A stretch of 40,546 bases of DNA from the NCBI GenBank assembly GCA_043801885.1, contig JAZDLP010000087.1, forward strand, positions 1 through 40,546, written 5' to 3'. A program made the translations under genes and the position numbers. The notes beneath the pieces were generated by a model. That model saw only the letters and a program-made list of their open reading frames with translations, had not been told where the DNA came from and did not search any database. This document shows, piece by piece, positions 3,081 to 40,111 of this stretch (positions are counted from its first letter, which is position 1; every line of letters starts with the position of its first letter). Source of the stretch: Planctomycetota bacterium (lineage in GTDB: Bacteria; Planctomycetota; SZUA-567; H5-PLA8).

Positions 3081-3319
3081 CTTGCAATCTCCGCGTATCG
3101 GTCAACAAACTTTCGTAGCGCCGCAATCGTCAGTGTCGCCGCGACTCGCCCCGTTCCCAGCGCGCCCGGTAGCCCCGTGATTCGCTCGGCTTGTCGCGCC
3201 GGCAGACACAACACGATTTCCTTCTGCTCGAACAGCGGGCAATCTGTGCAGGTCAATCGTTCGCACTCCTCGAAGCACCCGAAGTCGATGGCGGTTCCGC
3301 CCGGCGCGTGTTCAATCAT
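3077..3319 (-). CDS. hypothetical Cys-rich protein (80 aa)
   Basis: ORF track; contains CFEECERLTCTDCPLF; ATGA-type overlaps. Confidence 0.55.
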   Translation of the reverse strand: MIEHAPGGTAIDFGCFEECERLTCTDCPLFEQKEIVLCLPARQAERITGLPGALGTGRVAATLTIAALRKFVDRYAEIAR

Positions 3320-4017
3320 GCCATCACCAACGCGGGTTGCTTCTGTGCATCCGCGATGCGCCTCTGCGCGATGGCGAAGTAGTCAAGATTGATTTCCATG
3401 CCAATAAAATTGCGATTCAGTTTGACGCACGCCACGCCCGTTGTGCCGCTACCCATGAACGGGTCAAGAATGGTATCGCCTTCGTTGGTAAGTGTTGCGA
3501 TAAGAGTGATTATGTTTGGCAGGTATTTCTCTGTGGGGTGTTCGGTTTCGCCGTGTCCGCCGTTTGCCTCAAGGAATGCCTCCTCGAATTTGTGCATGCG
3601 ATGAAACGTCCACTTGCCACGCGCTCCCCATAGTCCAAACTCAAAAGAACTGACAAACATTCTGTCTCGATTCGTCGGAACGGGGTTTCTTTTCTTAATC
3701 ACAATTGGACGCTTGGCGTTAATTCCGTTCGCCTGCAGGCACTCCGCGATTAGTCCTAGATTCTGCCAAGAATTAAATATGACGATATTGGAGTCCACCT
3801 TCAATTTCGGCGCGGCACGGGCAATCCAATCGGTTTGATTAAACCCCTTGTCCCATTCCCCGAAATCAATCCCCTTGTAGGAATTGTATCGCTCCATTGT
3901 GGCAAAGTTGTTTTCGCGACTCACGTTGTACGGCGGGTCAGTAATCACCGCGTCCACGCTCGCATCGGGCATCTCGCGCATCAGTTCAAGGCAATCGCCT
4001 AGCCGCAAATCAATCAT
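3316..4017 (-). CDS. DNA methyltransferase, beta-class amino-MTase (N6-adenine or N4-cytosine)
   Basis: Motif IV ITDPPYNV lies near the N-terminus. Motif I ILDPFMGSGTTGVA plus HPTEK lie near the C-terminus. This is the same order as CcrM/HinfI-type enzymes. Confidence 0.9.
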   Translation of the reverse strand: MIDLRLGDCLELMREMPDASVDAVITDPPYNVSRENNFATMERYNSYKGIDFGEWDKGFNQTDWIARAAPKLKVDSNIVIFNSWQNLGLIAECLQANGINAKRPIVIKKRNPVPTNRDRMFVSSFEFGLWGARGKWTFHRMHKFEEAFLEANGGHGETEHPTEKYLPNIITLIATLTNEGDTILDPFMGSGTTGVACVKLNRNFIGMEINLDYFAIAQRRIADAQKQPALVMA

Positions 4018-4463: not shown

Positions 4464-4942
4464 GGTTTCACCTCGAACTGCGTCTGCCGCATCGCGTCGT
4501 GGTCAAGCGCAACAGACACGCGCGCTTCACCGCCGTGCTTGCGACCATAATCAGCGGGTATCTCGCCCCACGCTTGGGTATCCCATGCTAGTACCTTGGA
4601 GTGCTTAGGGTGATTCGCCAGCCATGTCTCGGCGTGCCTAATCATTGCAGCAAGTTCTATATTATACGTATGGTGCTTCGTATTGAATCGCTTTTTAGCA
4701 ATCCACGTCCGCGCCGTGAAGGAATCAGAGTAGACCGGATCGGTGCGGTTGTGTTTCGCAAGCCACGCCAGCGCGTGTACGATCGCGAGTGCCTCGCCGA
4801 TGTTGTTTGTGCCATCTGGATATTGCTTGTTGGCAAATATCTGTTTGCCCGTTGCAATATCCACAATACACCATTCGATAATGCCGGGGTTGCCTTGCGT
4901 TCCTACATCTACCGCAATCCCGCTGGTTGGTTTGCTACTCAT
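4460..4942 (-). CDS. RNase H-like protein
   Basis: ATG at 4942 is preceded by CAGGAGG. GIAVDVGTQGNPG ... TNNIGEALAIVHAL ... YSDSFTA resembles the D-E-D catalytic pattern of RNase HI. Confidence 0.6.
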   Translation of the reverse strand: MSSKPTSGIAVDVGTQGNPGIIEWCIVDIATGKQIFANKQYPDGTNNIGEALAIVHALAWLAKHNRTDPVYSDSFTARTWIAKKRFNTKHHTYNIELAAMIRHAETWLANHPKHSKVLAWDTQAWGEIPADYGRKHGGEARVSVALDHDAMRQTQFEVKP

Positions 4943-13122: not shown

Positions 13123-13150
13123 TTGACTCGGATCGGATTCGTGGTATAAT
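13123..13150 (+). promoter_or_regulatory. sigma70-type promoter with extended -10, rightward
   Basis: TTGACT (13123..13128), a 16-nt spacer, then TGg-TATAAT (13142..13150). Confidence 0.75.
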
Positions 13151-13264: not shown

Positions 13265-13468
13265 ATGTCAACGTTCCGCAAACTCTCGATTGATGAATAC
13301 TCTCAACTCTACAACGCGTTGAGCGACGCCCTTGATGCAGACAGTGGACAGTCCAACCGCTGCGGGAATCATTTTGTACTTATCGCAGTGCTGGGCAACC
13401 TCGGATTCAGCGCGCGGGGAAGCGAACAAGCCGAATCGCTTTCACAACGGATATTGGATGGACAATAA
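13265..13468 (+). CDS. ORFan 1 of rightward cassette (67 aa)
   Basis: ATG at 13265 is preceded by TTGGAGAC. The longer track ORF would start inside the structured leader. Confidence 0.6.
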   Translation: MSTFRKLSIDEYSQLYNALSDALDADSGQSNRCGNHFVLIAVLGNLGFSARGSEQAESLSQRILDGQ

Positions 13469-13737
13469 TGATACCCTCCGTCGGTGACTATGTACGTGTC
13501 AACGTTTGGAATGGAGTCGTGCGCGCCGTGTTTCGGGTCGAAGGCGCACCAGATAATCCGTTCGTTGAAATTGAGTTTGTCAAGAATATCTTTAAGGGTC
13601 AGCCGAGCGAGACGCATCGCTGGCTTGACCTCGCGCCGCATACCGCCACCGTATCGTGGCAAGCCCTGTTAAATGAAATTGTGACAACCCAAGAGCGAAT
13701 GCAAATCCGCTTTGACGCGCTAGGAGTACCAGAATAA
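13468..13737 (+). CDS. ORFan 2 (89 aa)
   Basis: ORF track. The start overlaps the upstream stop by one base (TAATG). Confidence 0.65.
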   Translation: MIPSVGDYVRVNVWNGVVRAVFRVEGAPDNPFVEIEFVKNIFKGQPSETHRWLDLAPHTATVSWQALLNEIVTTQERMQIRFDALGVPE

Positions 13738-13774: not shown

Positions 13775-14029
13775 ATGGAAATCATTCGAGACAACGAACT
13801 GGGCGGCGTTATGATGATCCCGCTTTTTGTTGATTGGCAGATTCGCAGATGCAACGTGAAGGGTTGCCGCGCCGTGCCGACGACGATTATCGCGGGACAC
13901 GATGAGGCGGGACGCGCCTACGGGCTTTGCGAAGTCCATTTCCAGCAAGGCAACCAACCCGAAGGGGCGAACCTGACCATTGAGTTTGACGCCTTCGATG
14001 CGTTCAAAAGCGAAAGGAGCGGGTGGTGA
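13775..14029 (+). CDS. ORFan 3 (84 aa), CxxxxC...CxxH zinc-binding-like
   Basis: AAAGGAG SD sits 7 nt upstream. Contains RRCNVKGC ... LCEVHF. Confidence 0.65.
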   Translation: MEIIRDNELGGVMMIPLFVDWQIRRCNVKGCRAVPTTIIAGHDEAGRAYGLCEVHFQQGNQPEGANLTIEFDAFDAFKSERSGW

Positions 14030-14229
14030 AAGAGAAAACCTACACGATCACAGTCAGAATGAATTGGATGAGCCGCCTTACCGACGAACTTACCAATTGG
14101 CAAATTCCGCCCTCGCGTTACACCATCAAGGAAAACGTTCTCACCACCACCAGCACGGATGTTGTGGACGTGGCGACGGAAACATTCTTGCGCCAACCTG
14201 AAGTCATCAAGATCGAGGTGACGAAATGA
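14023..14229 (+). CDS. ORFan 4 (68 aa)
   Basis: ORF track; 7-nt overlap with ORFan 3. The alternative GTG/ATG start cannot be resolved. Confidence 0.55.
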   Translation: MVKEKTYTITVRMNWMSRLTDELTNWQIPPSRYTIKENVLTTTSTDVVDVATETFLRQPEVIKIEVTK

Positions 14230-14489
14230 GCAACACACCAACCGAAGCGGAACTGAAACTGGCGCAAGAAATTGCGGACAGATTGGAAGTTGAACATTTC
14301 ATCGTGCTCGACAATGAATCGGATGCCACTAACATCGTCGCCGCTCTTCTCGCCGCGCACCGCGACGAGGGCGAGTTGGCGCGGTTGCTGGCGCTGGCTC
14401 GAAAGATGGAACACACCGAAAGCATAGGCGCGCGAAACAAGTGGTTGTGTGACATTGACGCCGCGCTGGCGCAACACGAGCAGGCATAG
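14226..14489 (+). CDS. ORFan 5 (87 aa, acidic, helical-looking)
   Basis: ORF track; ATGA overlap with ORFan 4. Confidence 0.6.
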   Translation: MSNTPTEAELKLAQEIADRLEVEHFIVLDNESDATNIVAALLAAHRDEGELARLLALARKMEHTESIGARNKWLCDIDAALAQHEQA

Positions 14490-19955: not shown

Positions 19956-22367
19956 CTACGCAACGGTAATCAACTGCGTCGTCATCAGTGAGCGTACTGT
20001 TGCGACGACCGTTCCCTGACCGCCGGTGCAGGAGAACACCAGTGTATGCGCCTGCCGCAATCCGCCCGCGGCATTAACAATGTATGTCGTCACGTCCAAG
20101 ACCACATTCGCCGCGCCGCCGGCGTTTTGCCAAGTCCCGCCGAGCGCGGTTGTGCGGTCAATGCCGTCAATCGCGAGCGAAATAGTTGTCGGGTACGCCG
20201 TGTCGTCGTAAATACCGTAAGTGATCGTCGTGCCGTGCGAGTGATCGGAAACGGTATGGGTATGATCGGCGACTGTGTGCGTATGCGCTGAAATTGAGAC
20301 TGTGTGCGTGTGGTCGCTGACGGTATGTGAATGTCCCGAACCCACATCGTAACCGGTGCTTTTGAATCCACTTGCCCCGCTTCCCCAGTAAAGCGTGCCG
20401 GGTGATCCCGGATTGGCTGTAACGGGATCAGAGCCAGTCCCATTGGAAATAGTGAATGTATGATAATGATTTCCGCCCGTGGATGTGGTTTGCCCGCCGC
20501 CACTCGAGCTTGTTGGCGTCTGTCCGCCGCTACTACTCGACGTTTGTCCGCCGCCGCTGCTTGATGTTTGCCCGCCGCCAGCCGCGACGCTCGTCGCCGT
20601 GATCGTCGAACGAAGCGGGCGCGTCTGCAAACGAACTTTGCACGAATTAAGATAGAGAACACGCGAATCAATTTCGACGGGCAGCGTGACCGTGTGACTT
20701 GGCGCAAGTTCCTCGCGGTACACAAATGTTTCAGCCGACGGATATGGCTGCACGAATGTCTGCATGACCTTGACCGCTTGCAATGCGCCGATGACGATTG
20801 CCGCGTCGTCAATCTGCCGCCGCCCCAAGTTGGAGAGCAGTAGCACCGTCTGCGCCGATCCGCTGGCGTCAAACGTGTCCGTCCGCTCCATCACGTAGAA
20901 CAGGTCGTTGATGTCCGCCCATTTGAACGCTGCGCCGCGCTGCGTGACGACCCCGCGGTATTCCAATCGAATCTTATCGCCGCATTTGACCGACCACGCG
21001 ACCTGTCGCGCGGTGACGTTGTAGATCAGGTGTGCGTCTTTGTACCATTGCAGGTATGCCGACGCCTTGTCGTAAAGCGCGTTCGCTCCATTGATAATAT
21101 CCGCATCGCTATTCGATAGCGGGTTAATGTCGGTAAACGGAAGAACTTTAACGCGTGTTCCATTCGTCGCCACGCTTGCCGCGTCGGCGAGATACCAATA
21201 CGAACTACTGTCTGGATTTGTGCCAGTCTGGATCGTGTACGGCGTTGTGCGCGTGCTGGTCTGGAGCGTCAGTGCGCCTAGTCCCTGACCGCCGCCCAGG
21301 GGAACAATCGTATTCCAGATTTCATCCGTGTCGGTGACTTCCTCGATGCTCTCCGCAATGCCGGCGAGTGTGTTCGCGTTCAGGTCGCTCGTCATCAGTT
21401 GCGGCATAACCAACCGCTTGCCGCTGTCTACGCCCATTGCGCCAAAGTCCAGCGTCCGCGCGGTTGCCCCTTCGCGGAAGTGGAGTTTCATCCGCGAGCC
21501 AATCGCCGCAATCGCCTCGAAGATGGATTGCCCCTCGTATGCTACCGTGATATTCCCAAGTGAGCCGTCGATTGTTCCGGGCGTCCATCCTGTTCCGTAG
21601 AGCAGTCCGTAGAGATTGCCGCTCACGTTCGCAACGGAGAGCACCGTCGATACCGCGATGTTATTATACTGTCGCCGCAGATAAGTGTTGGCGAAAACCA
21701 ACTCCTGCATCAGCGACCAGCCCTCGTAGCGGATCTCGGTCTGGCTGACCGATTTCGTCGGCTTGCGGAGAATGTATTCGCCGATGTAGCCATTCGTTTT
21801 GTGGTACGCCTTGACGTGGACCCCGCCGACGAGATTCGCGGTCATCGGGTCTGTCGCGGGAACAGAGAACGAGAGCGAACCGATCTGGTCAAGCGCGAAT
21901 CGAACGTTAATGCCTCGTGCCGTGAACAGTCCGCCGAGCGCGGTCCCGCCCGAACTGAACAGGTCGAGTCGCAGCGCGCCGACGGAGATCGTCTCGTAGT
22001 CGGCTTTGATGAGATAGCCGACGACACTAGCCGTTACATAGAGTGTGGGTTCGGCAACCGCGCGCACGGACGCAGTAAGCGATTTGACGACCTGTGCCTG
22101 CGCGGCGACGCTTGCCGTAACCGTTCGCGTGTATTGTGCTTGCGCCGCGACGCTTGCGGTTAACTGACGCGTGAATTGCGCCTGTGCCGCGACGCTCGCG
22201 GTAATGGTGAGTGTTACCGCTACCGCTGCCGCAACGCTTGCGGTCAGTGATTTTGTTAATGTGCCTTTGGCTGCTACGGACGCCGTGAGAGACTTAACGA
22301 CAGTGACTTTACCGCCGCTTGTGCCGCCGTAGTACGTCGAGCCAAAATACCCGCCGCCATACGCCAT
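19956..22367 (-). CDS. large tail tip protein (Tal-like) with N-terminal TASVAA repeats, G/S/T/Q linker and C-terminal HxH repeats
   Basis: 803 aa, positioned after Dit-like and small tail genes. The repeats were read in the translation. Confidence 0.7.
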   Translation of the reverse strand: MAYGGGYFGSTYYGGTSGGKVTVVKSLTASVAAKGTLTKSLTASVAAAVAVTLTITASVAAQAQFTRQLTASVAAQAQYTRTVTASVAAQAQVVKSLTASVRAVAEPTLYVTASVVGYLIKADYETISVGALRLDLFSSGGTALGGLFTARGINVRFALDQIGSLSFSVPATDPMTANLVGGVHVKAYHKTNGYIGEYILRKPTKSVSQTEIRYEGWSLMQELVFANTYLRRQYNNIAVSTVLSVANVSGNLYGLLYGTGWTPGTIDGSLGNITVAYEGQSIFEAIAAIGSRMKLHFREGATARTLDFGAMGVDSGKRLVMPQLMTSDLNANTLAGIAESIEEVTDTDEIWNTIVPLGGGQGLGALTLQTSTRTTPYTIQTGTNPDSSSYWYLADAASVATNGTRVKVLPFTDINPLSNSDADIINGANALYDKASAYLQWYKDAHLIYNVTARQVAWSVKCGDKIRLEYRGVVTQRGAAFKWADINDLFYVMERTDTFDASGSAQTVLLLSNLGRRQIDDAAIVIGALQAVKVMQTFVQPYPSAETFVYREELAPSHTVTLPVEIDSRVLYLNSCKVRLQTRPLRSTITATSVAAGGGQTSSSGGGQTSSSSGGQTPTSSSGGGQTTSTGGNHYHTFTISNGTGSDPVTANPGSPGTLYWGSGASGFKSTGYDVGSGHSHTVSDHTHTVSISAHTHTVADHTHTVSDHSHGTTITYGIYDDTAYPTTISLAIDGIDRTTALGGTWQNAGGAANVVLDVTTYIVNAAGGLRQAHTLVFSCTGGQGTVVATVRSLMTTQLITVA

Positions 22368-23209: not shown

Positions 23210-23995
23210 CTATTGGTACGTAACTCGATAGATAATCGTTACCGTTCCCGACGGTGTGCCGCCACCCGCCGCGACGAAATCCACATCGTTGGCGCCGACA
23301 TCGTATTTGAACAAACCGACCTGCGTTGTGGGAATGACCTTATTCGCCCAATCGTCCGAGCCGGCGAGTTGAATCGTCTGCGCGCCGGCGTCTACTTCCC
23401 AGAGTTGCGACGTTATATCGCCATTGTGTTGGATGTAATAGCCGTTGGTGTTATTCAAAAACTTGGGGCTTTTCGCGGTCCCGTTGAAACGCATAATCAT
23501 TTTTACTAGCGGCGCAGTACCGGTGTTATTCAGGTCAATCACGGTCGGCGTCGCGCTCACGCTCGTCGTCTGTGTGACTTGCGTGTCGGCATACCAGAAG
23601 GGTTCGGCGACCGCAAACGTCAGCGCGATGTTCGCCGCACCGATCTTCGAATAGGACTCCCGCTGTGGCTTGGCATTCTTGCACTTGGCGAGTAGGCGCA
23701 GGTATGTCGTGCCATCATCGAGTAGCACGCGTAACCATTGCTGCCCGGTGAATAGATTCTGCTTGAGCGTTGCCAGTTCGGTGTCGATCGTCAGATAGGA
23801 CGCACGCAGGATCATGTTGAAGGTGATCGCGTTGCCGATCTTGGGCGATTGTGCGGTTCCATCGGCGTCGTACGCGCCGCTCGCGCCAGGTACCTTGATG
23901 AGATTCGACTCGAATTCAGTTATGCCATCGTCGTAACTGCGGAAGTGGAAATTGGATGTGGCGAAATTGAAATTCCCAAAGTCGGTGAGGATCAC
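23210..23995 (-). CDS. distal tail protein (Dit)-like
   Basis: Lies immediately downstream of the tape measure with a 4-nt overlap. Size (261 aa) and position fit. No motif check was possible. Confidence 0.55.
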   Translation of the reverse strand: MILTDFGNFNFATSNFHFRSYDDGITEFESNLIKVPGASGAYDADGTAQSPKIGNAITFNMILRASYLTIDTELATLKQNLFTGQQWLRVLLDDGTTYLRLLAKCKNAKPQRESYSKIGAANIALTFAVAEPFWYADTQVTQTTSVSATPTVIDLNNTGTAPLVKMIMRFNGTAKSPKFLNNTNGYYIQHNGDITSQLWEVDAGAQTIQLAGSDDWANKVIPTTQVGLFKYDVGANDVDFVAAGGGTPSGTVTIIYRVTYQ

Positions 23996-26163
23996 AGTGC
24001 CATCCCATGTGCGCGCAGAGCCGTCACCACTTCGTTTGCTGTTTTTCGCGCTGATGTTGTTTCGTAGACATTGACGGTGATGCCGCCGACGTTGGTTGTT
24101 TTGCCCACCGGCGTGATCTGCACGCGTTCGGCTCCGCCCTCACCTACGCCGATCAGGGTCGGACGATTGACCATAAAGTCACCGCCACTCGCGTACCAGC
24201 CCGCGGGCTTGGCGAACGTAGACATATCACCTGGTACCCAACTGCCCATTCCAACGGCAGAGCGAATGCCCTGAAGTTGCAGGGCTTTGCCAATCAGATA
24301 ATCATACGCGCCGCCTTGCAGCGTTTTCATCGCGGCTGCCAGTTTTTCGTTTTCAGTACTTTCGTCCTTGAGGAATTGGATTTTCGTTGCGCTGGCTGTT
24401 TTCGCCGCCGTAACGTTATCGGCATACGCTAGGTTTTCCACGTCGCGCCGATGGTTGATGCCGCGTTCGGTTTCTGCGAGCGTGGCTTGCAATGCCGCGA
24501 GCTGCTTGGTCTGCGCGTCCTTCGTCGCCGTGACTTGCTCGGCTGCCGTGCGCCGCGCCTGCGCGATTTGCGCTTCTCCCGTCGCCTGCGCCTTCGCGAT
24601 CTGGTCTTGCATCCCCTGCGATGCGAGTTCTTGTGTGTGCGCGTATTGCTGATCCGTCTGCTGGCGACGGTAATCGAATTCTGCTGCTTGCTCTTGCTCG
24701 CGCTCGGCAATTGCCGCGAGCCGATCTGTTTTCTGCTGCGCGGCATCTGTGCGCTGTGCGCCCGATTCCTTCTTGAGTTTAGCGATCTGCTTATTGTAAT
24801 CCGAATTGATCTTCGCGGCTTCCTCTTGTGACTGTTGATCGAGAAAGCCCTTGCGCGTCAACGTCTCTGCTTCGGTGTAGACCTTGCCCTGATCGAGTTG
24901 CAGCATGCCGTATTTCTTGCGGACTTCTTCGAGCGCTGCCTGGCGCTGCTCTTCGATGCCAGTGGCTTTGTCTTGCTGGTCGGCGTCGATCTTGGTGAGC
25001 GACTTGGTCAGTTCGGTTGCCGCGGCAAGGCGGTCTTTGGCTTCTGAAGCCGCGCTTTTGGTGATGTCGCGATTCAGGGACTTGATATTCTCGGCGTAAC
25101 CGTAATAATCCTCACTCAGTTTTCGCGTGTTCGCCAGTTCAATGTCTTGAATCTGCTGGACTGTGTTCGACTGGATGTCGACGATCTTCTGACCAAGTTG
25201 TGTGTTGAGTTGGTTGATTTTCTCGGTCGTGTCCTGCTCGATCTTGATGCGGTCGATGCCCGATTTGCGCGTCGCCTCCGATTCGTCATAGGCGAGCGAC
25301 TTCAGTGTGCTTTTGTGCGCGGTAGCGAGGTCGTTCAGTTTCGCGGTGAGTGCGGTCTGCTCCTCGGAAACGCCGATGATGGACTTTTTGTAGAGGTCGG
25401 TCAGACGCGTGTTTTCGAGGATGGCAGGGGCTTCCTTAATTGCCGCGTTGTAGGCATCAACCTGCCGTTTGGTTTTTCCCGTAAGTGCTTGAGTAAATAA
25501 TTCCATAATGCGCGTGCGGTCTTTTTCTGCATCGCCGCCCGCGAGGGTTATCTTCGCAACCTCAAGTCCAACCACGCCAAAGCCGTACAAGAGACGCGTG
25601 GCTTGCCCCGCCGTGTCGCCTAGTTTCTCGATTTCATTCTTTGGCTTATTGGCAGGGTCGCCAATCTCTTTCAGCGATAGTGCAAAGTCGTGATTGGCTT
25701 TCGCAGCCGCCAGCGCGACGGACGCCTGATCGCGGGTTGCGCCAGAGAGTTGTGCTAGTCCCTCTGCTGCTTGATCGGTTTCCGCTAATCCATCGATAGA
25801 TTTTTTGAACGCATCGGTTTGTGGCGTGGCTGTATTGAGCGCATTGACGAGCGCGCTAATTCCCATTCCCGCCGCCGCAATTCCAACCCCCACACCGCCG
25901 CCAAACATGAACGATTCGCCCAATTGCGTGACCATGCCGGTTGCCTGCGAAATAGACCGGCCCATCTCGCCGGTCTTACCGATGGCAGAGGTCAGATAGA
26001 ACGCGGCTTCGCTGCCCGTCCGCATCCACTCGCGGCGATTCATTCCCAGAGCTTCGTTTGATCTGCCAGTCGCGCCAACGACTTTGTTCAAACCCTGTTC
26101 GGCTTGCTCAAAGCCATCGCCGGTTTTCTTGGTAATGATTTGGATTTCAATCGGATCAGGCAT
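23992..26163 (-). CDS. tail tape measure protein
   Basis: 723 aa, Ala/Gln/Lys/Glu-rich and coiled-coil-like, with a Gly-rich hydrophobic patch (FMFGGGVGVGIAAAGMGISAL). It follows the G/GT chaperone. Confidence 0.85.
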   Translation of the reverse strand: MPDPIEIQIITKKTGDGFEQAEQGLNKVVGATGRSNEALGMNRREWMRTGSEAAFYLTSAIGKTGEMGRSISQATGMVTQLGESFMFGGGVGVGIAAAGMGISALVNALNTATPQTDAFKKSIDGLAETDQAAEGLAQLSGATRDQASVALAAAKANHDFALSLKEIGDPANKPKNEIEKLGDTAGQATRLLYGFGVVGLEVAKITLAGGDAEKDRTRIMELFTQALTGKTKRQVDAYNAAIKEAPAILENTRLTDLYKKSIIGVSEEQTALTAKLNDLATAHKSTLKSLAYDESEATRKSGIDRIKIEQDTTEKINQLNTQLGQKIVDIQSNTVQQIQDIELANTRKLSEDYYGYAENIKSLNRDITKSAASEAKDRLAAATELTKSLTKIDADQQDKATGIEEQRQAALEEVRKKYGMLQLDQGKVYTEAETLTRKGFLDQQSQEEAAKINSDYNKQIAKLKKESGAQRTDAAQQKTDRLAAIAEREQEQAAEFDYRRQQTDQQYAHTQELASQGMQDQIAKAQATGEAQIAQARRTAAEQVTATKDAQTKQLAALQATLAETERGINHRRDVENLAYADNVTAAKTASATKIQFLKDESTENEKLAAAMKTLQGGAYDYLIGKALQLQGIRSAVGMGSWVPGDMSTFAKPAGWYASGGDFMVNRPTLIGVGEGGAERVQITPVGKTTNVGGITVNVYETTSARKTANEVVTALRAHGMAL

Positions 26164-26182
26164 TTTCTTTATCTCGAATCCG

Positions 26183-26191
26183 TGTTATAAT
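26183..26191 (+). promoter_or_regulatory. extended -10 promoter element (TGtTATAAT) for the antisense moron
   Basis: Read directly. AGGAGG lies 8 nt downstream and the ATG is at 26210. The -35 region is poor (TTTTCT). Confidence 0.5.
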
Positions 26192-26209
26192 TCTGCCAGG
26201 AGGTGTGTC

Positions 26210-26518
26210 ATGCCAGACGAATCTATCGAGCAAACCATTCTCCGCTATATCGAATCGGGCTATCGCGTGATCTGGAAAGACATGTACTCTGCCCAACTCG
26301 TCAAGTCCAAGCGGTTGCGGGGAGGCGTGGTAGCCACCCTTGCCCTGTTCATCTCTTTTTTCGCCGTGCTTGTGCTGCCGCTACAGACCACTCTGACTAT
26401 CGCCGCGCTTTCCCTATTCGTATTGCTTCTACTTGCTTTTGACTACCTCAATGCGCGAGATGCAACAGTCTATCTTTACCTCAGCGAAGACGGCACAGTG
26501 CAATCCATCACCCGCTAA
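26210..26518 (+). CDS. moron-like membrane protein (102 aa, 2 TM), antisense to the tail operon
   Basis: ATG follows AGGAGGTGTGTC. TM segments VVATLALFISFFAVLVLPL and LTIAALSLFVLLLLAF. It fills the gap between the GT stop (26515) and the tape-measure start (26163). Confidence 0.7.
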   Translation: MPDESIEQTILRYIESGYRVIWKDMYSAQLVKSKRLRGGVVATLALFISFFAVLVLPLQTTLTIAALSLFVLLLLAFDYLNARDATVYLYLSEDGTVQSITR

Positions 26519-27071
26519 TCTTCCTCTTCCTCGCGTGCCCACTCCATCGCTTTGAGATCCGCTGGCGTCAAGTCCTTTGCCCAGTCCTCAGACTGCGCCG
26601 CACGTTCGTGCGCCTTCCGCGAGTTGCGCGCGTTCTCACGCAAGAGCCAGCGCAGCCATGTCCGCACCGTCACGATCTGTGGCACGCGCTGCGGGTCAAG
26701 GTGGAACTGCTCCGCGTACTGAAACTCCAGTTCCCACCGCGGTAGCGTATCGCCCTCACGCCGCGCCCACGCCTTGAACGCGGCTACGCTCCCGCTACTA
26801 AAGGGGGCGCGTCGCTCTCTCCATCTTTTGGTGGCGACTTCATGTCAATCAGCGCGTCGAAGAGTTGCTTGCGCACCACGTCTAGTTCCTTCCGCTTGAT
26901 CGCGTCGATTTCCTTGCGCGTCCAGCTCTTCTTGTGGTCGACGTGATCGAGCAGAAACTGGCGGAAGTCGTCAACCGCGTAGGTATCGCCGAACAGTGTG
27001 TGGCTTTCGCCGAGCGTGAGTTCGTCAGGGTCGTATTCAACGATGACAAGCGCGGTCTGCGGTATTGCCAT
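26515..27071 (-). CDS. tail assembly chaperone GT-like fusion made by a -1 programmed frameshift
   Basis: Manual translation shows the -1 frame is open for 96 codons, from the slippery site to TAG at 26517..26515. It reads PFSSGSVAAFKAWARREGDTLPRWELEFQYAEQFHLDPQRVPQIVTVRTWLRWLLRENARNSRKAHERAAQSEDWAKDLTPADLKAMEWAREEEED. Confidence 0.7.
26784..27071 (-). CDS. tail assembly chaperone (G-like, zero-frame product)
   Basis: 95 aa, acidic, between the major tail and tape-measure genes. It contains the slippery site 5 codons before its stop. Confidence 0.75.
   Translation of the reverse strand: MAIPQTALVIVEYDPDELTLGESHTLFGDTYAVDDFRQFLLDHVDHKKSWTRKEIDAIKRKELDVVRKQLFDALIDMKSPPKDGESDAPPLVAGA
26799..26805 (-). 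promoter_or_regulatory. -1 ribosomal slippery heptamer C CCT TTA
   Basis: The minus strand reads GCG CCC CCT TTA GTA, so X XXY YYZ = C CCU UUA in the zero frame. Confidence 0.7.
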
Positions 27072-27618: not shown

Positions 27619-28395
27619 TTACCCGCGAATAAACGCGAGCGCGAAATTGCATCCCGTGATTGTTGAAAACGAAATTTGCCAACGCGTGAATTGCCGAATG
27701 GTTGCGGTTGTCGCCAGCGCGATAATCCCCGCACTCGGCACGGCGGTATGCGCGATTGCGCCACTCGTCAATCCACTGACATTAGCAAAAGAAACGTCCG
27801 TATTGGTGGCGGCATCTTGAACGGTGAGTGTTACCGATCCCGTGCCGGTGACAGAGAAAATCTGCCAACACATAAACCCACCCGCCGTTGACTGTGCCAC
27901 GTCATCTATGCCAATGGCGGAGTTGACTGCCGTCTCATTCCCCTTCGCGTGGAGTAACTTGCCCCAGGGCTTGGTATAATTGATTGCCGCCGCGATAGCG
28001 TCCACCTCGCCGAATGGAATCGACGCGACGATGATGTTGTTATCGACTTGCGCCTTGTAATCCAACTGCTCAAATTCGCCACAGTAGACCGGATCGCCTT
28101 GCGCCGGCGCGCCACGCACGCCCTGCGGAATCATCACCACGCGCTTGACGCCCGCGCCATTCATTACAGTATGCAAGCCGCTCGTCGCCGTATTGTCAAA
28201 AAAGCCATTGAACGTGCCGATGCCGAGCGACGCTTGCCCGATAGCGATCGCGGCTTTGACCGCGTCTGTCCACGCGGCGTCAACAGGCACAACGTGTTCC
28301 CATTTCAAGTCGCCTGTCTTGCGCGTGTGCCCGGACAAATCCACACCGTCCACGTAGAATCGCCGATCCTGCTCACGAATTCTACCCGTTGCCAT
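27619..28395 (-). CDS. tail tube-like protein, long paralogue (258 aa)
   Basis: Assigned by position. Its N-terminal ~70 aa resemble 27091..27600. Confidence 0.6.
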   Translation of the reverse strand: MATGRIREQDRRFYVDGVDLSGHTRKTGDLKWEHVVPVDAAWTDAVKAAIAIGQASLGIGTFNGFFDNTATSGLHTVMNGAGVKRVVMIPQGVRGAPAQGDPVYCGEFEQLDYKAQVDNNIIVASIPFGEVDAIAAAINYTKPWGKLLHAKGNETAVNSAIGIDDVAQSTAGGFMCWQIFSVTGTGSVTLTVQDAATNTDVSFANVSGLTSGAIAHTAVPSAGIIALATTATIRQFTRWQISFSTITGCNFALAFIRG

Positions 28396-28665: not shown

Positions 28666-29112
28666 CTATCCCTGGAAGACATGACACTTGACCGGAATCT
28701 GCTCGATGAAGTACGCCGCGCCGCCCTCGAACTGAACATCAGTCGCGGTTGTGCGTCCCGCGAATTGCAGGTCATCCCATAATCCCGCCGCGCTCGTGTT
28801 GTCTTGCACTACATCCGCAATCGTCTTCTCGATTAGGTCGCGCTTGTCCTCTGCCTGTGCCTCTGTCCAGTTCGTGTCCTTCTGGATCACGAATGTCCAA
28901 ATGTCGAGATAGATCCACACGTCAAATGTTTGATCGCTTGGATTCTGTGTGCGTTCCGTTCCCGCGCTCGTGACAATCACCGCCGAAAGGGGCTTGCCAA
29001 AGTCGCCGACGAGATAGCCATAGGACTTGTCAACGGGCTTGCCCGTGCCGACAAGTGCGGTCGCCAGGAGTGCCGCGAGTCCATCGCGATAGGTTTCTCG
29101 ATTCACACTCAT
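28666..29112 (-). CDS. tail terminator / head-tail joining-like protein
   Basis: Assigned by position and size (148 aa) only. Confidence 0.45.
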   Translation of the reverse strand: MSVNRETYRDGLAALLATALVGTGKPVDKSYGYLVGDFGKPLSAVIVTSAGTERTQNPSDQTFDVWIYLDIWTFVIQKDTNWTEAQAEDKRDLIEKTIADVVQDNTSAAGLWDDLQFAGRTTATDVQFEGGAAYFIEQIPVKCHVFQG

Positions 29113-29600
29113 CGCGCGCCTTCCTCGAAATTCATTCGCGCAAACGCGCCGTGAAGTTGCAACGCGGCGCCATCGTAGGTGCGCGCGGCATCCGTTGTGT
29201 CAGCAAAATGACCGAGATAAATTACCTTGCCGTTGACCTTGATTTGAGCGCGCCACTTGCGGCGCGTGGAATCATACGACACGCCTTTAAGCCCGCTCGT
29301 ATTATTTTGGTACTTCCCGCGATTGCGCTGATTCTCGGCATGCGTAGCCAGTCGCAGGTTCGAACGCCGATGGTCAAGCGTGTCACCGGAAACATGATCG
29401 ACTTCCGTGCCAGCGGGCGCGTTCAGAATTTCGCGCGCCATCAGCACTCTCTTTCGATGCGGGTTCTTGCCTGTGCTCCGCACCGCGTAAAACCTACCAC
29501 TGCGAACCTTCATCGCGTACCATTTATGCGCGCTCAGCCGCTCATAGTCTTCGTTGTCAACGAGCGCGACCTGTCCTTGCGTAAGCTTGATTTGCTTCAT
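29109..29600 (-). CDS. HNH endonuclease with AP2 DNA-binding domain (free-standing homing endonuclease)
   Basis: VDHVSGDTLDHRRSNLRLATHAENQRN is an HNH_3-type motif. SGLKGVSYDSTRRKWRAQIKVNGKVIYLGHFADTTDAARTYDGAALQLHGAFARMNF is AP2-like. Confidence 0.85.
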   Translation of the reverse strand: MKQIKLTQGQVALVDNEDYERLSAHKWYAMKVRSGRFYAVRSTGKNPHRKRVLMAREILNAPAGTEVDHVSGDTLDHRRSNLRLATHAENQRNRGKYQNNTSGLKGVSYDSTRRKWRAQIKVNGKVIYLGHFADTTDAARTYDGAALQLHGAFARMNFEEGAR

Positions 29601-35182: not shown

Positions 35183-35318
35183 CGGTTATCGGCACGGCAT
35201 TGAGCAGCGCGGCAAATTCCGCGTCGAGCATCGCCATTTCCTCGTCAGTTAGTTGCACGGCGTCGGCAGTCGTCAGTCGCGCAATCTCTTCGTCGGATAA
35301 AGCAATAGGTGGTATCAT
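35151..35318 (-). CDS. possible small acidic protein (55 aa)
   Basis: Not in the track. The ATG forms ATGA with the portal stop. Translation begins MIPPIALSDEEIARLTTADAVQLTDEEMAMLDAEFAALLNAVPITDAEPKRQAQS. It overlaps the next gene by 32 nt. Confidence 0.35.
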   Translation of the reverse strand: MIPPIALSDEEIARLTTADAVQLTDEEMAMLDAEFAALLNAVPITDAEPKRQAQS

Positions 35319-36802
35319 GTCGGCATCACCAGTTGCTCATTCGGCATAGATTCGTAAATCGCGCCAATGTCCTCGTCGCTCCATCCGTTGCGCGCGAGAT
35401 AGGTTTCGAGCGGCAGACCCGCTGCGACTGCCTGTGCTGCCGCCGTCCAGAACGGCACAGGATTCTCGCGGTCATCTGCGCGCGTGGTCAGGGGTTGCCA
35501 TTGCGTTTCCAAAGTTTCGTTTTCATCCAGTCCGCCCGCGCCGAATACGTTAATCAATCGCCGCGCCATTGCGAAACAATCCTCCCAGGAGTTACCGAAC
35601 ATCGTTTGAATCGCGCCAATGCGCGCGAGCATCGGCGCTTCGAGTTGCTTCTGCGTCCCCTCGGCGGGGATCTGCGCATTTAATTGGAAACGTGCAGCGG
35701 GGATATCTTTCGCCTGCGCGATCCAGGCGATGGCTTTGTCGACAACCGACACTAACGGAGCAGGATCAATCGGCGGCTCACGCAGTGCATCTACCTCAGT
35801 GCGTGATTTCGTGGTCCCGATGATCGTATTCGGTTTGAGTTTCAGCCGATTCGAGCCATCCGATTTTAAGTCCCTGCCATCGCTCGTTGGGTAGAATCCA
35901 AAGAACTTCCAGATAGGAAATCCGTGCGTATCGTTCGATTCAACCAAGTCAACCAGTGCGTGGTTAATCACGTTTTGCATCGAAACGACCGTGCTGTCAA
36001 TCTCGCACTTGCGCCCGCGATTGCAAAAATGGATGATCGGTATTCCGAGTGGTGCGCCTGTGCCGTCCACCCAGGGGACGAAGCCGCGCGCATCTACTGA
36101 TTCAGGGATGAATCCCAATACGCCGCCGGCGTCGATGATCTGTACGTTGTCACGTACCGGCGTCCATTTGCCGCGATCTAGCACATATCGCTCGAAATGG
36201 TCTGGGTAGTAAAGTGTCATTCGTTGCCGTGCGGTCGTCATGCCGTTTTTGCCGATCATTGTTTCCGCCCAGCGTTTGGCAACGTAGAGCATCGGCTGTG
36301 TCTCATCGTCGTTTGGGTAGAATGCCTTGCAGCCGAATCCGCTACCATCATTTGTTGTGTCACAGAATCGCGGATGGGGATTGAAGCGAGGAAGTCCACT
36401 GGAATCGAGGTCAACGAATACGAACGATTCGCCATCGCGCAGGGTGTTCTCGTAAATTGAGGATTCTTTCGCGTCGAGGCGATTTGCCGCCCACCATTCG
36501 CCCGCTAGCGTGCCGAGCGATTCGTCGCTTGAAGTGAACGAATCAACGTGCATCCGGTCCGTGAGCGCGTAAACCACCTTGTCGGAGACATTCAGATGCA
36601 GGAGTTGATTCGGGTCAGGCGCACCGGAGAGGTCTAGGATTTCGCGCAGGCGCGCAGATAAGTACGCGTACTGTTCGCCATCGAAGTATTTGCGTGCGCG
36701 GACAATCGCTTTCTGACGGTCGTTTTCCTCTTCATCCGCCCAACTCGCCCACGCGAGCGCGAGCGCGACTTGTGCGTTTTCATTCGCTGCGATTTCCAAC
36801 AT
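35315..36802 (-). CDS. portal protein
   Basis: 495 aa, immediately downstream of the large terminase. Confidence 0.8.
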   Translation of the reverse strand: MLEIAANENAQVALALAWASWADEEENDRQKAIVRARKYFDGEQYAYLSARLREILDLSGAPDPNQLLHLNVSDKVVYALTDRMHVDSFTSSDESLGTLAGEWWAANRLDAKESSIYENTLRDGESFVFVDLDSSGLPRFNPHPRFCDTTNDGSGFGCKAFYPNDDETQPMLYVAKRWAETMIGKNGMTTARQRMTLYYPDHFERYVLDRGKWTPVRDNVQIIDAGGVLGFIPESVDARGFVPWVDGTGAPLGIPIIHFCNRGRKCEIDSTVVSMQNVINHALVDLVESNDTHGFPIWKFFGFYPTSDGRDLKSDGSNRLKLKPNTIIGTTKSRTEVDALREPPIDPAPLVSVVDKAIAWIAQAKDIPAARFQLNAQIPAEGTQKQLEAPMLARIGAIQTMFGNSWEDCFAMARRLINVFGAGGLDENETLETQWQPLTTRADDRENPVPFWTAAAQAVAAGLPLETYLARNGWSDEDIGAIYESMPNEQLVMPT

Positions 36803-36823: not shown

Positions 36824-38077
36824 CTATCTCGCCCTGCCGACAAAGTTCTGGTATTGTTCACCGATCAATTCCGTGCAACTCCAAACGTGCGCATCCATTC
36901 GTCCAGGCGATGGGTCGCCTGGTTGCCATTGGCACTGCTCATCTTCCAAGTAAAAGAATGTCCCAACGTGATGCTCTCGCCCCTGCTCGCAGATTGCGCT
37001 GATCGGCTCGGCGCGAATCGCCTTGCCGCGCGACGCGCTAACCAATTTGACCGGTACATTCGCATCGACTTGGTTGATAACCGTCCGTACCATTTCGCCG
37101 CCGAAATTCTGCTCGGCTACGATGTAATTCGCTTTGAGTTTGTAGTAGAGCGTAATCGCCGCTCTTGCCCAAACATCGGGCGATGCCTGCAAACTTGCGT
37201 CCTCTAGTGTGTAGATATGGATCGCGTCGCCAATCCGCGCGCTGCCATTTGCAACGATTCCGCATTCGTCGCCCGATCCCGCCTTGCTACCGCTTGGGTC
37301 AACACCGACGACGATGTGCTCCAGTTCCGGCGCGCGCGTTACGCGGTTTGCCTCAATGTCCGCTCGCTTCCACAACGCGCCCGGCGAGTCCTCTTTGTCC
37401 TCAGCTAGAATCTCTTGCTCATATGCCAGCCGTGTCATGTCGCGCGTAATGTCAATCAATGCCTCTTTGCTAATGTGTGGATTCTCGTGCGATGCGAAGT
37501 GAAACGCCTGCCAGCGCCCTGTTGTATTCTCTTGCGCCCGCTTGAACAATTTCGCCGCGTGCCGCTTGTCATGCGCCTTTGATGCACTTGACGTTCGCAG
37601 ACTTGGCGGCGTGTAGATGAACACGGCGTCACCGTTATTATCCAGGAGCATTGGCGCACCTACCACGCCCCAAGCATCTTCGTCCATCAACTGAAACTCG
37701 TCCAGTATCAATAGGTCGCCGTAATCACCGCGTAGGGTGTTCGCGTTCCATGCCGTTTTTGCACGAATCCGATTGAGTGTGCGTGGCACTTCAATCACGT
37801 GTTCTGTCTCGTTTTTGTAAAGAGCTTTGGCGTCGATGGGTGCTGCCAACGCGCTAGTCACTTCGTACCAGAATCGTTCGATCTGGTCAGCCGTCGGCGT
37901 CGCATACAGAACGCGCCGATGGTCTAGGAATGCTTTGATGGCAATGATTGCCGCGCCGACGGTTTTACCGCCGCGTCTGCCGGCGCGGATGATGCGCCGC
38001 TTTGCCGTACTATCGATAAACTCCCGCTGCCGTTCGTGCGGTCGCGGCAAATGAATCGTGAAGTCATCATTTGTCAT
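36824..38077 (-). CDS. terL: terminase large subunit
   Basis: Walker A AGRRGGKTVGAA, Walker B LLILDEFQ, and nuclease-domain VGVDPSGSKAGSGDECGIV. Confidence 0.9.
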   Translation of the reverse strand: MTNDDFTIHLPRPHERQREFIDSTAKRRIIRAGRRGGKTVGAAIIAIKAFLDHRRVLYATPTADQIERFWYEVTSALAAPIDAKALYKNETEHVIEVPRTLNRIRAKTAWNANTLRGDYGDLLILDEFQLMDEDAWGVVGAPMLLDNNGDAVFIYTPPSLRTSSASKAHDKRHAAKLFKRAQENTTGRWQAFHFASHENPHISKEALIDITRDMTRLAYEQEILAEDKEDSPGALWKRADIEANRVTRAPELEHIVVGVDPSGSKAGSGDECGIVANGSARIGDAIHIYTLEDASLQASPDVWARAAITLYYKLKANYIVAEQNFGGEMVRTVINQVDANVPVKLVSASRGKAIRAEPISAICEQGREHHVGTFFYLEDEQCQWQPGDPSPGRMDAHVWSCTELIGEQYQNFVGRAR

Positions 38078-38457: not shown

Positions 38458-39057
38458 CTATGCGTCAACAGGTACCAAGTTTCTCCAATCGCACAAACTA
38501 GCAACCACTGATTTATCAATAATCACAAATGGATCACACGAACCATTTGCACTACGGCGATTCAAATCTGTCACTTCGTTTCTAACCGCAAATTCTTCGA
38601 CAAGTGACGCGACAAACTCATTCTTGCGAACAGGTGGAATAAAAATCGTTCTGATTTTCGGCAACCGACTAACCCAAAAACCAAACTCTTGACTGTTGAC
38701 GCGGCAGACATATAGGCAATCTATGAATCTGCGTTTTTGTAAATGAATCAGTAAGGGCAAAACCTCGAGCGACAAATCGGAATACTGTTTGCTTGAATGG
38801 GTCTTGATCTCGAACTCGAATATCCGATTGCGCCCAATCGCTAAACGGTCTGCGCGCCCACGTACATACAATGCCGAAATACTATGTGACTTAATCAATA
38901 AATCTTGGATTGTCTGCGGCAATGTTTCGTGATATGTTTGTGCGTGAATACTATAACCACACGCCTGAATGTAGTTGACCGCAATGTCTTCTAGTTTTGC
39001 GTGTGGCTCAAAAGACGGGTCAATTCTTGGCGATGCGACTTTTTGCGATGTTAGCAT
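38458..39057 (-). CDS. PD-(D/E)XK-type nuclease candidate (restriction-endonuclease-like)
   Basis: GRADRLAIGRNRIFEFEIKTH gives a D-x12-ExK motif. GC is about 42% in two hand-counted 60-nt lines, against about 55% in flanking genes. Its start overlaps the MTase 3' end by 38 nt. Confidence 0.5.
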   Translation of the reverse strand: MLTSQKVASPRIDPSFEPHAKLEDIAVNYIQACGYSIHAQTYHETLPQTIQDLLIKSHSISALYVRGRADRLAIGRNRIFEFEIKTHSSKQYSDLSLEVLPLLIHLQKRRFIDCLYVCRVNSQEFGFWVSRLPKIRTIFIPPVRKNEFVASLVEEFAVRNEVTDLNRRSANGSCDPFVIIDKSVVASLCDWRNLVPVDA

Positions 39058-40111
39058 TGTCCTCGTCTATTTCGATACCGATTGAATTGCGATTCAGTTG
39101 ATGCGCGGCAATCAGTGTTGTGCCTGACCCTGCAAACGGGTCTAAGATTGTATCGCCCTCGTTAGTCAAATGTTCGATGTAATAGCGCGCCTCTGCGTCG
39201 CTTTGTTGCCAGTCGTGATCGTCTTTAGTTGGCAAACTCGATTCGATTAGGTCAGAGACAAAATCGAGGTTGCCGCCGCGCGTGTCTTTTACAAACCACA
39301 GCATCGGCTTCCACGCCACGAAAACATTGACACCAGTCAGCCGCGCCGAGTTTCCGTTGTGCTTGCAGCACAGTGTCCACCAGTACCGCAAATGCGGAGT
39401 CATTAGATTTAGTATTTCTGGAATGGCATAATGCCCGGCATAACAAATCAGACTGCCGCCCGGCTTCAAAACCCGTGCCGCCTCACGCGCCAAGTCCTCA
39501 TACAACGGAATGGATTCTCTGTCATAGGGCGGATCGGTAAAAACGAGGTCAACGGAATTGTCTGGAATGTCTTTGACGCGCTCCCGAAAATCGCCCACTC
39601 GCAAATCAACACCACAGGGCAACGCGACTGACTTGCCCGCCTTTGCGCGCTTCGTCCGCTCCGCTTGTTTTCGCTCGCTCTTCGCAACCCCCAAGACAGT
39701 AGTTGTAGTCAGCTCTTTTTCTTTCCCGAGCTCCTCCGCAATGGTCGTTTCCAGCTTTGCTTCGGGTAGTTCTCCCATTTGTTGAGTCCGCGATGATTCG
39801 TTTCGGGTTATTCCAAGTTCGTCCAACGTAACCGTAACTGTCCCATCTTGGGACAGTTTGGGTGTTTTCCCCTCTCGCAACTCGCCTGATTTCTTCATCT
39901 GTGCGAGTATCTGACCCTCTTTCCATTGCGCCTTGATCTTTATTTCGGCGGCATTATTCTGCGCTTCTAATCCAAGTCCCGCCTTGCGCGCGTACTGCCT
40001 AGCCGCCTCGGCTAGGTTTGCAACCTGTCGAGCGTCTGACACGGTTTTGATCTCTGCTAGCATCCGCGTTGCTTCGGTCAGTTTTGTTAAAGTGCCATTA
40101 CCGTTACTCAT
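39020..40111 (-). CDS. DNA methyltransferase (beta-class amino-MTase) with ~170-aa N-terminal DNA-binding-like extension
   Basis: VFTDPPYDR (motif IV) precedes ILDPFAGSGTTLIAA (motif I). The N-terminal region is AEIKIKAQWKEGQIL...LDELGITRNESSRTQQMGELPE. SD is GAGGTTGAA. Confidence 0.85.
   Translation of the reverse strand: MSNGNGTLTKLTEATRMLAEIKTVSDARQVANLAEAARQYARKAGLGLEAQNNAAEIKIKAQWKEGQILAQMKKSGELREGKTPKLSQDGTVTVTLDELGITRNESSRTQQMGELPEAKLETTIAEELGKEKELTTTTVLGVAKSERKQAERTKRAKAGKSVALPCGVDLRVGDFRERVKDIPDNSVDLVFTDPPYDRESIPLYEDLAREAARVLKPGGSLICYAGHYAIPEILNLMTPHLRYWWTLCCKHNGNSARLTGVNVFVAWKPMLWFVKDTRGGNLDFVSDLIESSLPTKDDHDWQQSDAEARYYIEHLTNEGDTILDPFAGSGTTLIAAHQLNRNSIGIEIDEDNANIAKSRIAKN

Follow-up and report, generated by a model that had tools for sequence, protein, structure and literature searches.

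A reverse-oriented membrane-protein gene between the tail chaperone and tape-measure genes of a siphovirus-like genome: a moron with a candidate role in superinfection exclusion

Exclusion genes are familiar from phage lysogeny modules, such as those of lambda, where rexAB follows cI, and of lactococcal phages, where sie2009 lies between int and the repressor gene. Exclusion without lysogeny is exemplified by T4 Imm, a small membrane protein of a lytic phage that is made early and blocks DNA injection. In S. thermophilus phage, ltp is likewise located between int and the repressor gene (PMC3952083). Morons of late operons are a main source of prophage-encoded defence, and few of them have a known function. 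Tab (tail assembly blocker) of phage JBD26 is a late-operon moron that blocks tail assembly with a specificity set by the invader's tape-measure protein (TMP) (PMC10884400). For the slot between the tail assembly chaperone gene and the TMP gene, the reference case so far is HK97 gp15, which is described as a YebO-related superinfection-exclusion protein of the inner membrane that mediates a tail-dependent block of DNA entry (Juhala 2000 and Cumby 2012, summarised in PMC3594210). Here, we describe a gene that occupies the same slot in reverse orientation and encodes a membrane protein of 102 amino acids (aa), designated P0001, in a window of 40,546 nt, i.e., the whole of contig JAZDLP010000087.1 from the Planctomycetota bacterium assembly GCA_043801885.1. 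Coordinates are those of the forward strand and are collected in Table 1; P-numbers denote proteins, and L-numbers denote the loci or contigs compared.

We found that the plus-strand open reading frame (ORF) is a genuine protein-coding gene under purifying selection, on the grounds of its substitution pattern, its single open frame, and its gene-like codon usage. The closest comparison is provided by L001, a 1.9-kb metagenomic contig with the same layout as the window (TMP start on the minus strand, ORF on the plus strand, and T frame and G on the minus strand). Substitutions between the two ORFs at codon positions 1, 2, and 3 numbered 29, 17, and 48, respectively, and the ratio of nonsynonymous to synonymous substitution (dN/dS) was 0.24/1.22 = 0.20, as estimated from this single sequence pair. 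The frame of the plus-strand ORF is the sole frame free of stops in both the window and L001. A codon-usage log-odds score trained on 17 long genes of the window was +0.174 per codon for the ORF (real genes, 0.07-0.32) and negative for the other five frames. All other plus-strand ORFs of at least 90 aa between 14.6 and 40.5 kb scored negative, which agrees with the first-pass annotation in that this is the lone plus-strand gene of the late region; a second plus-strand operon, at 13.2-14.5 kb, lies outside it. The same annotation had placed the start of the feature at 26183, which is the first base of the promoter-like element and not of the ORF, although the 102-aa plus-strand gene itself stands. 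A gene on the minus strand of the gap was ruled out by 3-7 stops in every minus frame of the homologous locus and by dN approximating dS, so that no minus-strand gene fills the gap in the relative and the gap is otherwise empty, as had been claimed. Rfam and tRNA scans of the gap gave no match. The TAA of the gene overlaps the TAG of the T frame on the opposite strand by 2 nt, again as first described. The ORF has a guanine-cytosine content of 52.1% and the gap one of 51.0%, whereas the window as a whole has 55.1% and the flanks have 57-64%; the base composition is therefore unlike that of the flanks, as is expected of a moron, and lower, as first noted, by a modest difference.

The gene is an insertion between genes that are adjacent in relatives and, because GT and TMP overlap or adjoin there, it is a moron in the classical sense. 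In L003 (tube 69% and G 60% identical), the TMP ATG lies inside the last T codons, so that GT and TMP overlap, and in L006 (tube 46% and G 61% identical) the T stop and the TMP start are shared in ATGGCTGA. Among 17 more distant IMG/VR relatives (tube 37-51% identical), tube, G, T, and TMP are contiguous and tightly packed, and none of the 17 has the antisense gene or a family member. The suggestion that the moron had entered a junction contiguous in relatives was thus borne out by synteny. The TMP start codon is divergent from the antisense gene and 46 nt away from it. A search around the insert for target-site duplications and terminal inverted repeats yielded only short matches of chance size. 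The chaperone side of the junction is defined by two overlapping ORFs in the interval from tube to TMP, joined by a -1 slippery heptamer, and the frameshifted GT product proposed earlier was recovered as such. G/GT has no sequence match in Pfam or PHROG; its assignment is nevertheless sound, because the heptamer is kept in three related loci (L001, L003, and L006). The window G is 51-64% identical to G of L001, L003, L006, and L009.

The sequence ahead of the gene is conserved in its layout. The succession GTGnTATA(A/C)T, 6 nt, GGAGG, 6 or 7 nt, and ATG does not vary among the window, L001, L014, and L035, even though the encoded proteins share only 32-64% identity; the -10 variants are TGaTATAAT in L001 and L035 and TGaTATACT in L014, and GGAGG is invariant in the alignment of the window, L001, and L014. 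The extended -10 element and the Shine-Dalgarno sequence, both read as first annotated, are therefore shared features of these loci, and the conserved -10 is promoter-like, its conservation suggesting promoter activity. A generic two-hexamer promoter scan called no promoter at the antisense gene because the -35 is poor. At the antisense gene of L003 the signals are TTGCCA-18-TATAAT and GGAGG-5-GTG, and that of L007 has CATAAT only. Only 23 nt separate the -10 from the start codon of TMP on the opposite strand, and late transcription and moron initiation would therefore have to compete for the same DNA. An earlier remark that the gene would generate antisense RNA applies to the intercistronic spacer and the 3' region of T/G; it does not apply to the TMP coding sequence, because TMP diverges from the moron promoter.

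Across the window, TGNTATAAT occurs three times versus 0.40 expected, each time on the plus strand, a count attained in 2 of 100 shuffles; the sites lie before the antisense gene, at the head of the 13.2-14.5 kb operon, and within the 258-aa gene. The operon is headed by a near-consensus promoter, TTGACT-16 nt-TGgTATAAT (13123-13150, +), and consists of about five small genes (13265-13468, 13468-13737, 13775-14029, 14023-14229, and 14226-14489) with no Pfam match. It is divergent from the replication/recombination genes on the minus strand, runs towards the late operon, and may be an early or switch region. The third extended -10, TGGTATAAT at 27972-27980 (+), is located inside the 258-aa minus-strand gene and may be an antisense promoter or a chance occurrence; no convincing plus-strand ORF was seen downstream of it.

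Among 5.8 billion protein clusters, the sole close homologue of P0001 was P0002, which is 64% identical globally and 63% by BLASTP, and a profile search of 1.84 billion representative proteins retrieved 17 proteins at E <= 1e-3. Members of this family have an N-terminal helix followed by GYRV..SAQLV.PK, a hydrophobic segment that forms two helices or, in distant members, one shorter stretch, and a C-terminal D.T.YLYVD..G.V; P0001 carries both motifs, flanking the hydrophobic segment. In the alignments, G17 and Q29 are invariant and Y18, K34, Y79, D84, and G95 near-invariant, and some members have an additional N-terminal zinc ribbon. P0001 had no significant family in Pfam, NCBIfam, or PADLOC, none of which covers the family core, and no match in PHROGs at E <= 1. 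Against PADLOC-DB v2, nothing was retrieved for P0001 and one relative had a marginal match (Aga2, E 0.0097). A Pfam match of P0001 to S_4TM (E 0.12) is not significant and was disregarded. Searches of 50,697 GenBank phage records, by tblastn with three family members and by blastn with the region, gave no match. A scan of viral contigs with the G profile found nothing, and L002, obtained when such contigs were scanned with the family profile, was a spurious short motif match. Seven of the 17 family members match phrog_34413 (best E 3.5e-15), an unannotated PHROG that P0001 itself does not match, so that sequenced phages already contain members of the wider family. In the literature searched, we found no description of the family or of the way in which it is consistently reversed at two adjacent junctions between tail genes.

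An AlphaFold2 (AF2) model of P0001 built with 13 sequences has a mean predicted local distance difference test (pLDDT) score of 84 and comprises a helix (6-15), two strands (18-23 and 27-32), two helices (38-55 and 58-81), and two further strands (85-91 and 97-101). Hydropathy and the model both support the pair of transmembrane (TM) helices and are in keeping with the soluble N-terminus and two TM helices recognized at first reading. Because four positive charges precede TM1 and the loop connecting TM1 with TM2 is uncharged, both termini are predicted to be cytoplasmic; the prediction for P0001 is thus a helical hairpin, N-in/C-in, whose cytoplasmic alpha/beta domain is conserved. The soluble parts at the two ends are the most conserved, the N-terminal segment above all, and the TM helices the least, so that function probably depends on the small membrane-held cytoplasmic alpha/beta domain. 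Foldseek comparison of the AF2 model with BFVD and PDB returned nothing below E 0.04, and matches to eRF1 and the proteasome were dismissed on account of root-mean-square deviations of 17-20 A.

Every one of the five nearest homologues, at 26-64% identity, is again a single gene set in reverse within a tail operon. Three of them, P0002 (L001), P0003 (L035), and P0004 (L014), are located at the T stop/TMP start junction, and the other two, P0005 (L007-L009, six contigs) and P0006 (L003, a 47-kb contig), are at the junction between tube and G. In L006, the spacer of 213 nt between tube and G (4684-4896) holds an apparent decayed family copy on the antisense strand, with a zinc-ribbon fragment KCPQCGEANG in one frame, the C-terminal motif ERSAFIYLDAEGNAQTIE in another, and the membrane part deleted; the match is weak (E 0.4), yet it is the top non-member match and lies where, and in the direction in which, a copy would be expected. 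The moron (32% identical), TMP (49%, each TMP gene having an antisense neighbour), and Dit (47%) are common to L014 and the window, but the L014 chaperone is unrelated and has the slippery site AAAAAAC; the moron therefore travels with the TMP side. Between L035 1726-1804 and L001 423-501, identity is 95% across the final 79 nt available, a stretch made up of 27 nt from the end of the moron gene and of the 3' end of T; the two moron proteins are 41% identical, with a zinc ribbon in one only. These alignments place a sharp recombination joint at the edge of the cassette. Cassette swapping of this kind typifies genes engaged in a phage-phage arms race. L001, L008, and L035 were derived from one sample set (ERZ13693045, ERZ13693046, and ERZ13693099), and so were L007 and L009.

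More distant members, which have a single hydrophobic stretch, are found in other contexts. That of L010, from a phage carrying a large serine recombinase, lies directly 3' of a CI-like HTH_3 repressor gene and has a clean terminator after it; that of L004 lies directly 3' of a tyrosine integrase gene; and that of L013 is within an integrase-bearing element. Two members are in cellular neighbourhoods, that of L005 beside Flp pilin and that of L011 beside an ABC transporter, and some cellular members have zinc ribbons. The gene order of L001 is unusual in its own right: at 982-1925 there is no tube gene before G, its place being taken by a region with divergent promoter signals (TTGACA-17-TATACT) and by three genes on the plus strand, of which one is HTH_17 and none has a counterpart in the window or the other loci. 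A different mosaic or a satellite-like element could account for this arrangement, as could chimeric assembly at low coverage (2.4x).

These data suggest a conflict gene that is made when the late genes are silent, in view of the recurrent antisense placement, the TMP linkage, the allele swapping, and the relatives in lysogeny modules. A superinfection-exclusion or defence role is what we infer from position only, and among the explanations considered, exclusion at the inner membrane is our first choice, with a probability of roughly 45%. The moron would be an independently transcribed accessory gene, inserted reversed between the genes for the G/GT chaperone and a siphovirus TMP, and a host promoter of the sigma-70 type with an extended -10 would give rise to an mRNA with a short leader. 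Since it runs towards the late operon, the gene would be active while late transcription is off, i.e., early in infection or, if the phage is temperate, in the lysogen, and late transcription, on passing through the gene, would damp its expression. The product would enter the cytoplasmic membrane, where the N- and C-terminal beta-hairpins may form the cytoplasmic alpha/beta domain, and would guard the infected or lysogenic cell against related phages. The target step would be at the inner membrane and tail- or TMP-dependent, and may be DNA entry, as for HK97 gp15, or a later TMP-dependent step. The exclusion role gains indirect support from distant members that adjoin a CI-like repressor or integrase gene. 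A bolder proposal, which we regard as rather unlikely, is that the clade with two TM helices forms a dedicated tail-module exclusion/defence cassette in which the obligatory antisense placement itself confers self-immunity: host-type transcription would make the blocker while the late genes are silent, and convergent late transcription would shut it off as the phage's own TMP and chaperone are made, replacing a partner of the anti-Tab kind, with allele swapping setting mutual-exclusion groups among co-occurring phages.

Several observations weigh against an exclusion role. No similarity in sequence or fold was found between P0001 and any known exclusion or defence protein searched. Conservation lies on the cytoplasmic side, and outside the membrane there is only a loop of about 4-6 uncharged residues, a poor fit to a blocker acting from the periplasmic side. 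The 40.5 kb of the window, possibly not a complete genome, yielded neither an integrase nor a repressor; both the inward-facing conserved part and the lack of detected lysogeny genes take some support away from exclusion. A terminator of its own, another mark of a moron, is not seen: the window lacks a terminator-like site after the stop, the plus-strand hairpin closest to it being 285 nt downstream and the hairpin count equal to chance, although hairpins lie 3' of the stop in the homologues from L007 and L010. The tail-embedded cases are related by descent and so are not independent observations, and the dN/dS estimate likewise draws on one pair. Because cellular members exist, the basic activity of the family need not be antiviral. 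Finally, scans of 185,579 species genomes with the G and tube profiles revealed no prophage relative from which a host could be named.

The cytoplasmic location of the conserved part of the protein and the linkage of the gene to the TMP module would also suit a defence that acts after entry, which is our second choice and unlikely overall. P0001 could sense TMP and block assembly of the invader's tail, as Tab does, or serve as an abortive-infection membrane effector; the alpha/beta domain might recognize a competitor's TMP or chaperone, the TM hairpin might sequester the target or permeabilise the membrane, and the phage's own late transcription might silence the gene convergently. Tab offers a precedent as a prophage late-operon moron that targets TMP (PMC10884400), family members beside a repressor or integrase gene are consistent with such a role, and the S_4TM match, weak and non-significant as it is, concerns an effector domain. 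However, P0001 resembles no PADLOC model, Tab is soluble and encoded between terminase genes, and a partner or counter-defence gene is not evident beside the moron. Ranking behind this, and again unlikely, is an accessory membrane protein with a role outside phage-phage conflict, such as lysogenic conversion, host physiology, or an early function of the phage itself, for which the junction would simply be a tolerated insertion site. The cellular homologues beside the ABC transporter and Flp pilin genes, the failure to find any annotation for the family, and the tolerance of chaperone-flanking junctions for insertions, as in HK97, are in its favour; the nearest homologues are nevertheless all tail-embedded, and a conflict gene better fits the recurrent antisense placement at two neighbouring junctions, the cassette swapping, and the decayed copy.

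The position of the gene raises the question of whether nucleic acid and not protein matters, i.e., whether convergent transcription or antisense RNA tunes GT and TMP or uncouples their translation, with the peptide being secondary. The insertion breaks the overlap of T stop and TMP start that is seen in L003 and L006, the -10 is very close to the TMP start codon, and a transcript without a terminator would continue antisense into T and G. We consider this very unlikely, because strong purifying selection acts on the protein, the family is conserved down to about 26% identity across junctions and contexts, there is no Rfam match, and in L010 and L004 the protein is present without a tail gene to regulate. 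A lysis function, as a class II-like holin or antiholin or as a regulator of lysis timing, is the least probable of all. It would accord with a small protein having two TM helices and predicted cytoplasmic termini, with the fact that Pfam identified no endolysin or holin elsewhere in the window, and with a Rhodococcus phage holin far down the fold-search list (E 2.3). The gene is, however, antisense to the late operon, has a host-type promoter, and is remote from a lysis cassette; conservation resides in the soluble parts and not in the TM helices; the relatives adjoin repressor or integrase genes or sit in cellular loci; and the gene is absent from the 17 related phages. The holin reading was rejected, as context and conservation pattern are unsuited to it.

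Table 1. Features of the 40,546-nt window
Feature	Position	Strand	Remarks
Coding sequence of the 102-aa membrane protein P0001	26210..26518	+	ATG 26210; TAA 26516..26518 included
Inserted segment, 351 nt	26164..26514	.	Separates GT stop from TMP start
Extended -10 element TGTTATAAT (TGtTATAAT), promoter-like	26183..26191	+	-35 poor: TTTCTT at ~26164-26169
Shine-Dalgarno sequence AGGAGG	26198..26203	+	6 nt after the -10, 6 nt before ATG
P0001 residues 1-37	26210..26320	+	Predicted cytoplasmic helix and beta-hairpin, GYRV..SAQLV.(P/S)K, then positively charged KSKRLR patch
P0001 residues 38-81	26321..26452	+	Two predicted TM helices (38-55, 58-81); short uncharged loop VLPLQT
P0001 residues 82-102	26453..26515	+	Predicted C-terminal beta-hairpin, motif D.T.YLY...G.V; conserved columns D84 and G95
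Large terminase (TerL)	36824-38077	-	
SPP1-type portal	35315-36802	-	
Gene with HNH_3 and AP2, typical of homing endonucleases	29109-29600	-	Embedded among head-tail connector genes
Gene of 258 aa	27619-28395	-	
Tail-tube-like gene, 169 aa	27091-27600	-	Upstream of G
Tail assembly chaperone G, 95 aa	26784-27071	-	Between tube-like gene and TMP
Slippery heptamer C CCT TTA, -1 frameshift	26805..26799	-	Kept in L001, L003, and L006
T frame of GT fusion, 94 codons and TAG	26515..26799	-	-1 frame open to TAG 26515..26517
Tape-measure gene (TMP), 723 aa	23992..26163	-	ATG 26163..26161; between GT and Dit-like gene
Dit-like gene	23210-23995	-	Weak SPP1_Dit match, E 0.0024, below Pfam cut-off

The window is a siphovirus-like genome in which all structural genes, including those for scaffold and cement proteins, are on the minus strand (Table 1). 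The contig has no terminal overlap, and the phage genome may therefore be incomplete. The best match of TerL, with 60% identity across 89% of its length, is the large terminase of Methanosarcina virus MetMV (MK170447), those ranking next being 32-47% identical, and TMP has no Pfam or PHROG match of its own and none among the GenBank phages by tblastn (50,697 records). An archaeal host, as the MetMV match might imply, was not adopted, because only TerL matches and the promoters and Shine-Dalgarno sites are textbook bacterial; the host may belong to either domain.

Some further observations concern individual genes. The N-termini of TMP and P0001 are alike, reading MPDPIEIQII (26134-26163, -) and MPDESIEQTI (26210-26239, +). 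An inverted duplication was considered and rejected: the DNA is identical at only about 16 of 30 positions, and the likeness is lost in L014 and L003, so that it is probably due to chance. Tandem tube-like paralogues were seen in the IMG/VR relatives, with three in L023 (4984-6507) and two in L031 (5479-6498). A distal tail protein of 803 aa (19956-22367, -) has N-terminal LTASVAAQAQ... repeats, GGGQTSSS repeats, and a histidine-rich HTHTVSDH repeat block near its C-terminus, and has no Pfam match. Two N6/N4 DNA methylase genes (3316-4017 and 39020-40111, both -) are present, one at each end of the contig.

The finding adds to the chaperone/TMP slot a family that is unrelated to gp15, unannotated, always reversed at this slot and the neighbouring one, and present in several metagenomic phage lineages. 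If P0001 is an exclusion or defence protein, it would represent a new family with a simple positional signature by which members can be found, a way to test convergent transcription as built-in self-protection, and a means of approaching those steps at the inner membrane that depend on the tape measure. Otherwise, the locus would still be a clean case of mosaic cassette exchange within a tail operon.

Compared with known systems, the gene shares with class II holins the two TM helices and the cytoplasmic termini, which are predictions only, and differs from them in being antisense to the late operon, between tail genes, and without a neighbouring lysin gene. T4 Imm has a different genomic context, and no homology to P0001 is claimed. 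With rexAB, sie2009, and ltp the comparison is one of position only: these genes are in lysogeny modules, whereas the window copy is in a tail operon, and a slot of their type is occupied by the distant family members in L010 and L004. JBD26 Tab resembles the gene in being a small moron inside a late operon that is expressed while the late genes are off. Tab is, however, an 83-aa soluble protein (no TM segment is mentioned) that has a dedicated anti-Tab partner, and its gene lies between terminase genes; the two proteins are set apart by description, P0001 having neither a PHROGs nor a PADLOC match. HK97 gp15 is the nearest parallel, and in position a nearer one than the first-pass annotation had stated, although in orientation, size, number of TM helices, and sequence the precedent does not hold. 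The gp15 gene is co-oriented with the tail genes and has an annotated terminator after it, its product is 62 aa long with one N-terminal hydrophobic segment, compared with the 102 aa, two TM helices, and cytoplasmic domain of P0001, and BLASTP gave no alignment of the two at E <= 100. HK97 is also demonstrably temperate, whereas no lysogeny genes were detected in the window. In both phages, nevertheless, a gene for a small membrane protein, gp15 being thought to have transcription signals of its own, lies at the very same junction between a -1 frameshifted chaperone product and TMP (HK97 record), as an insertion that related phages lack.

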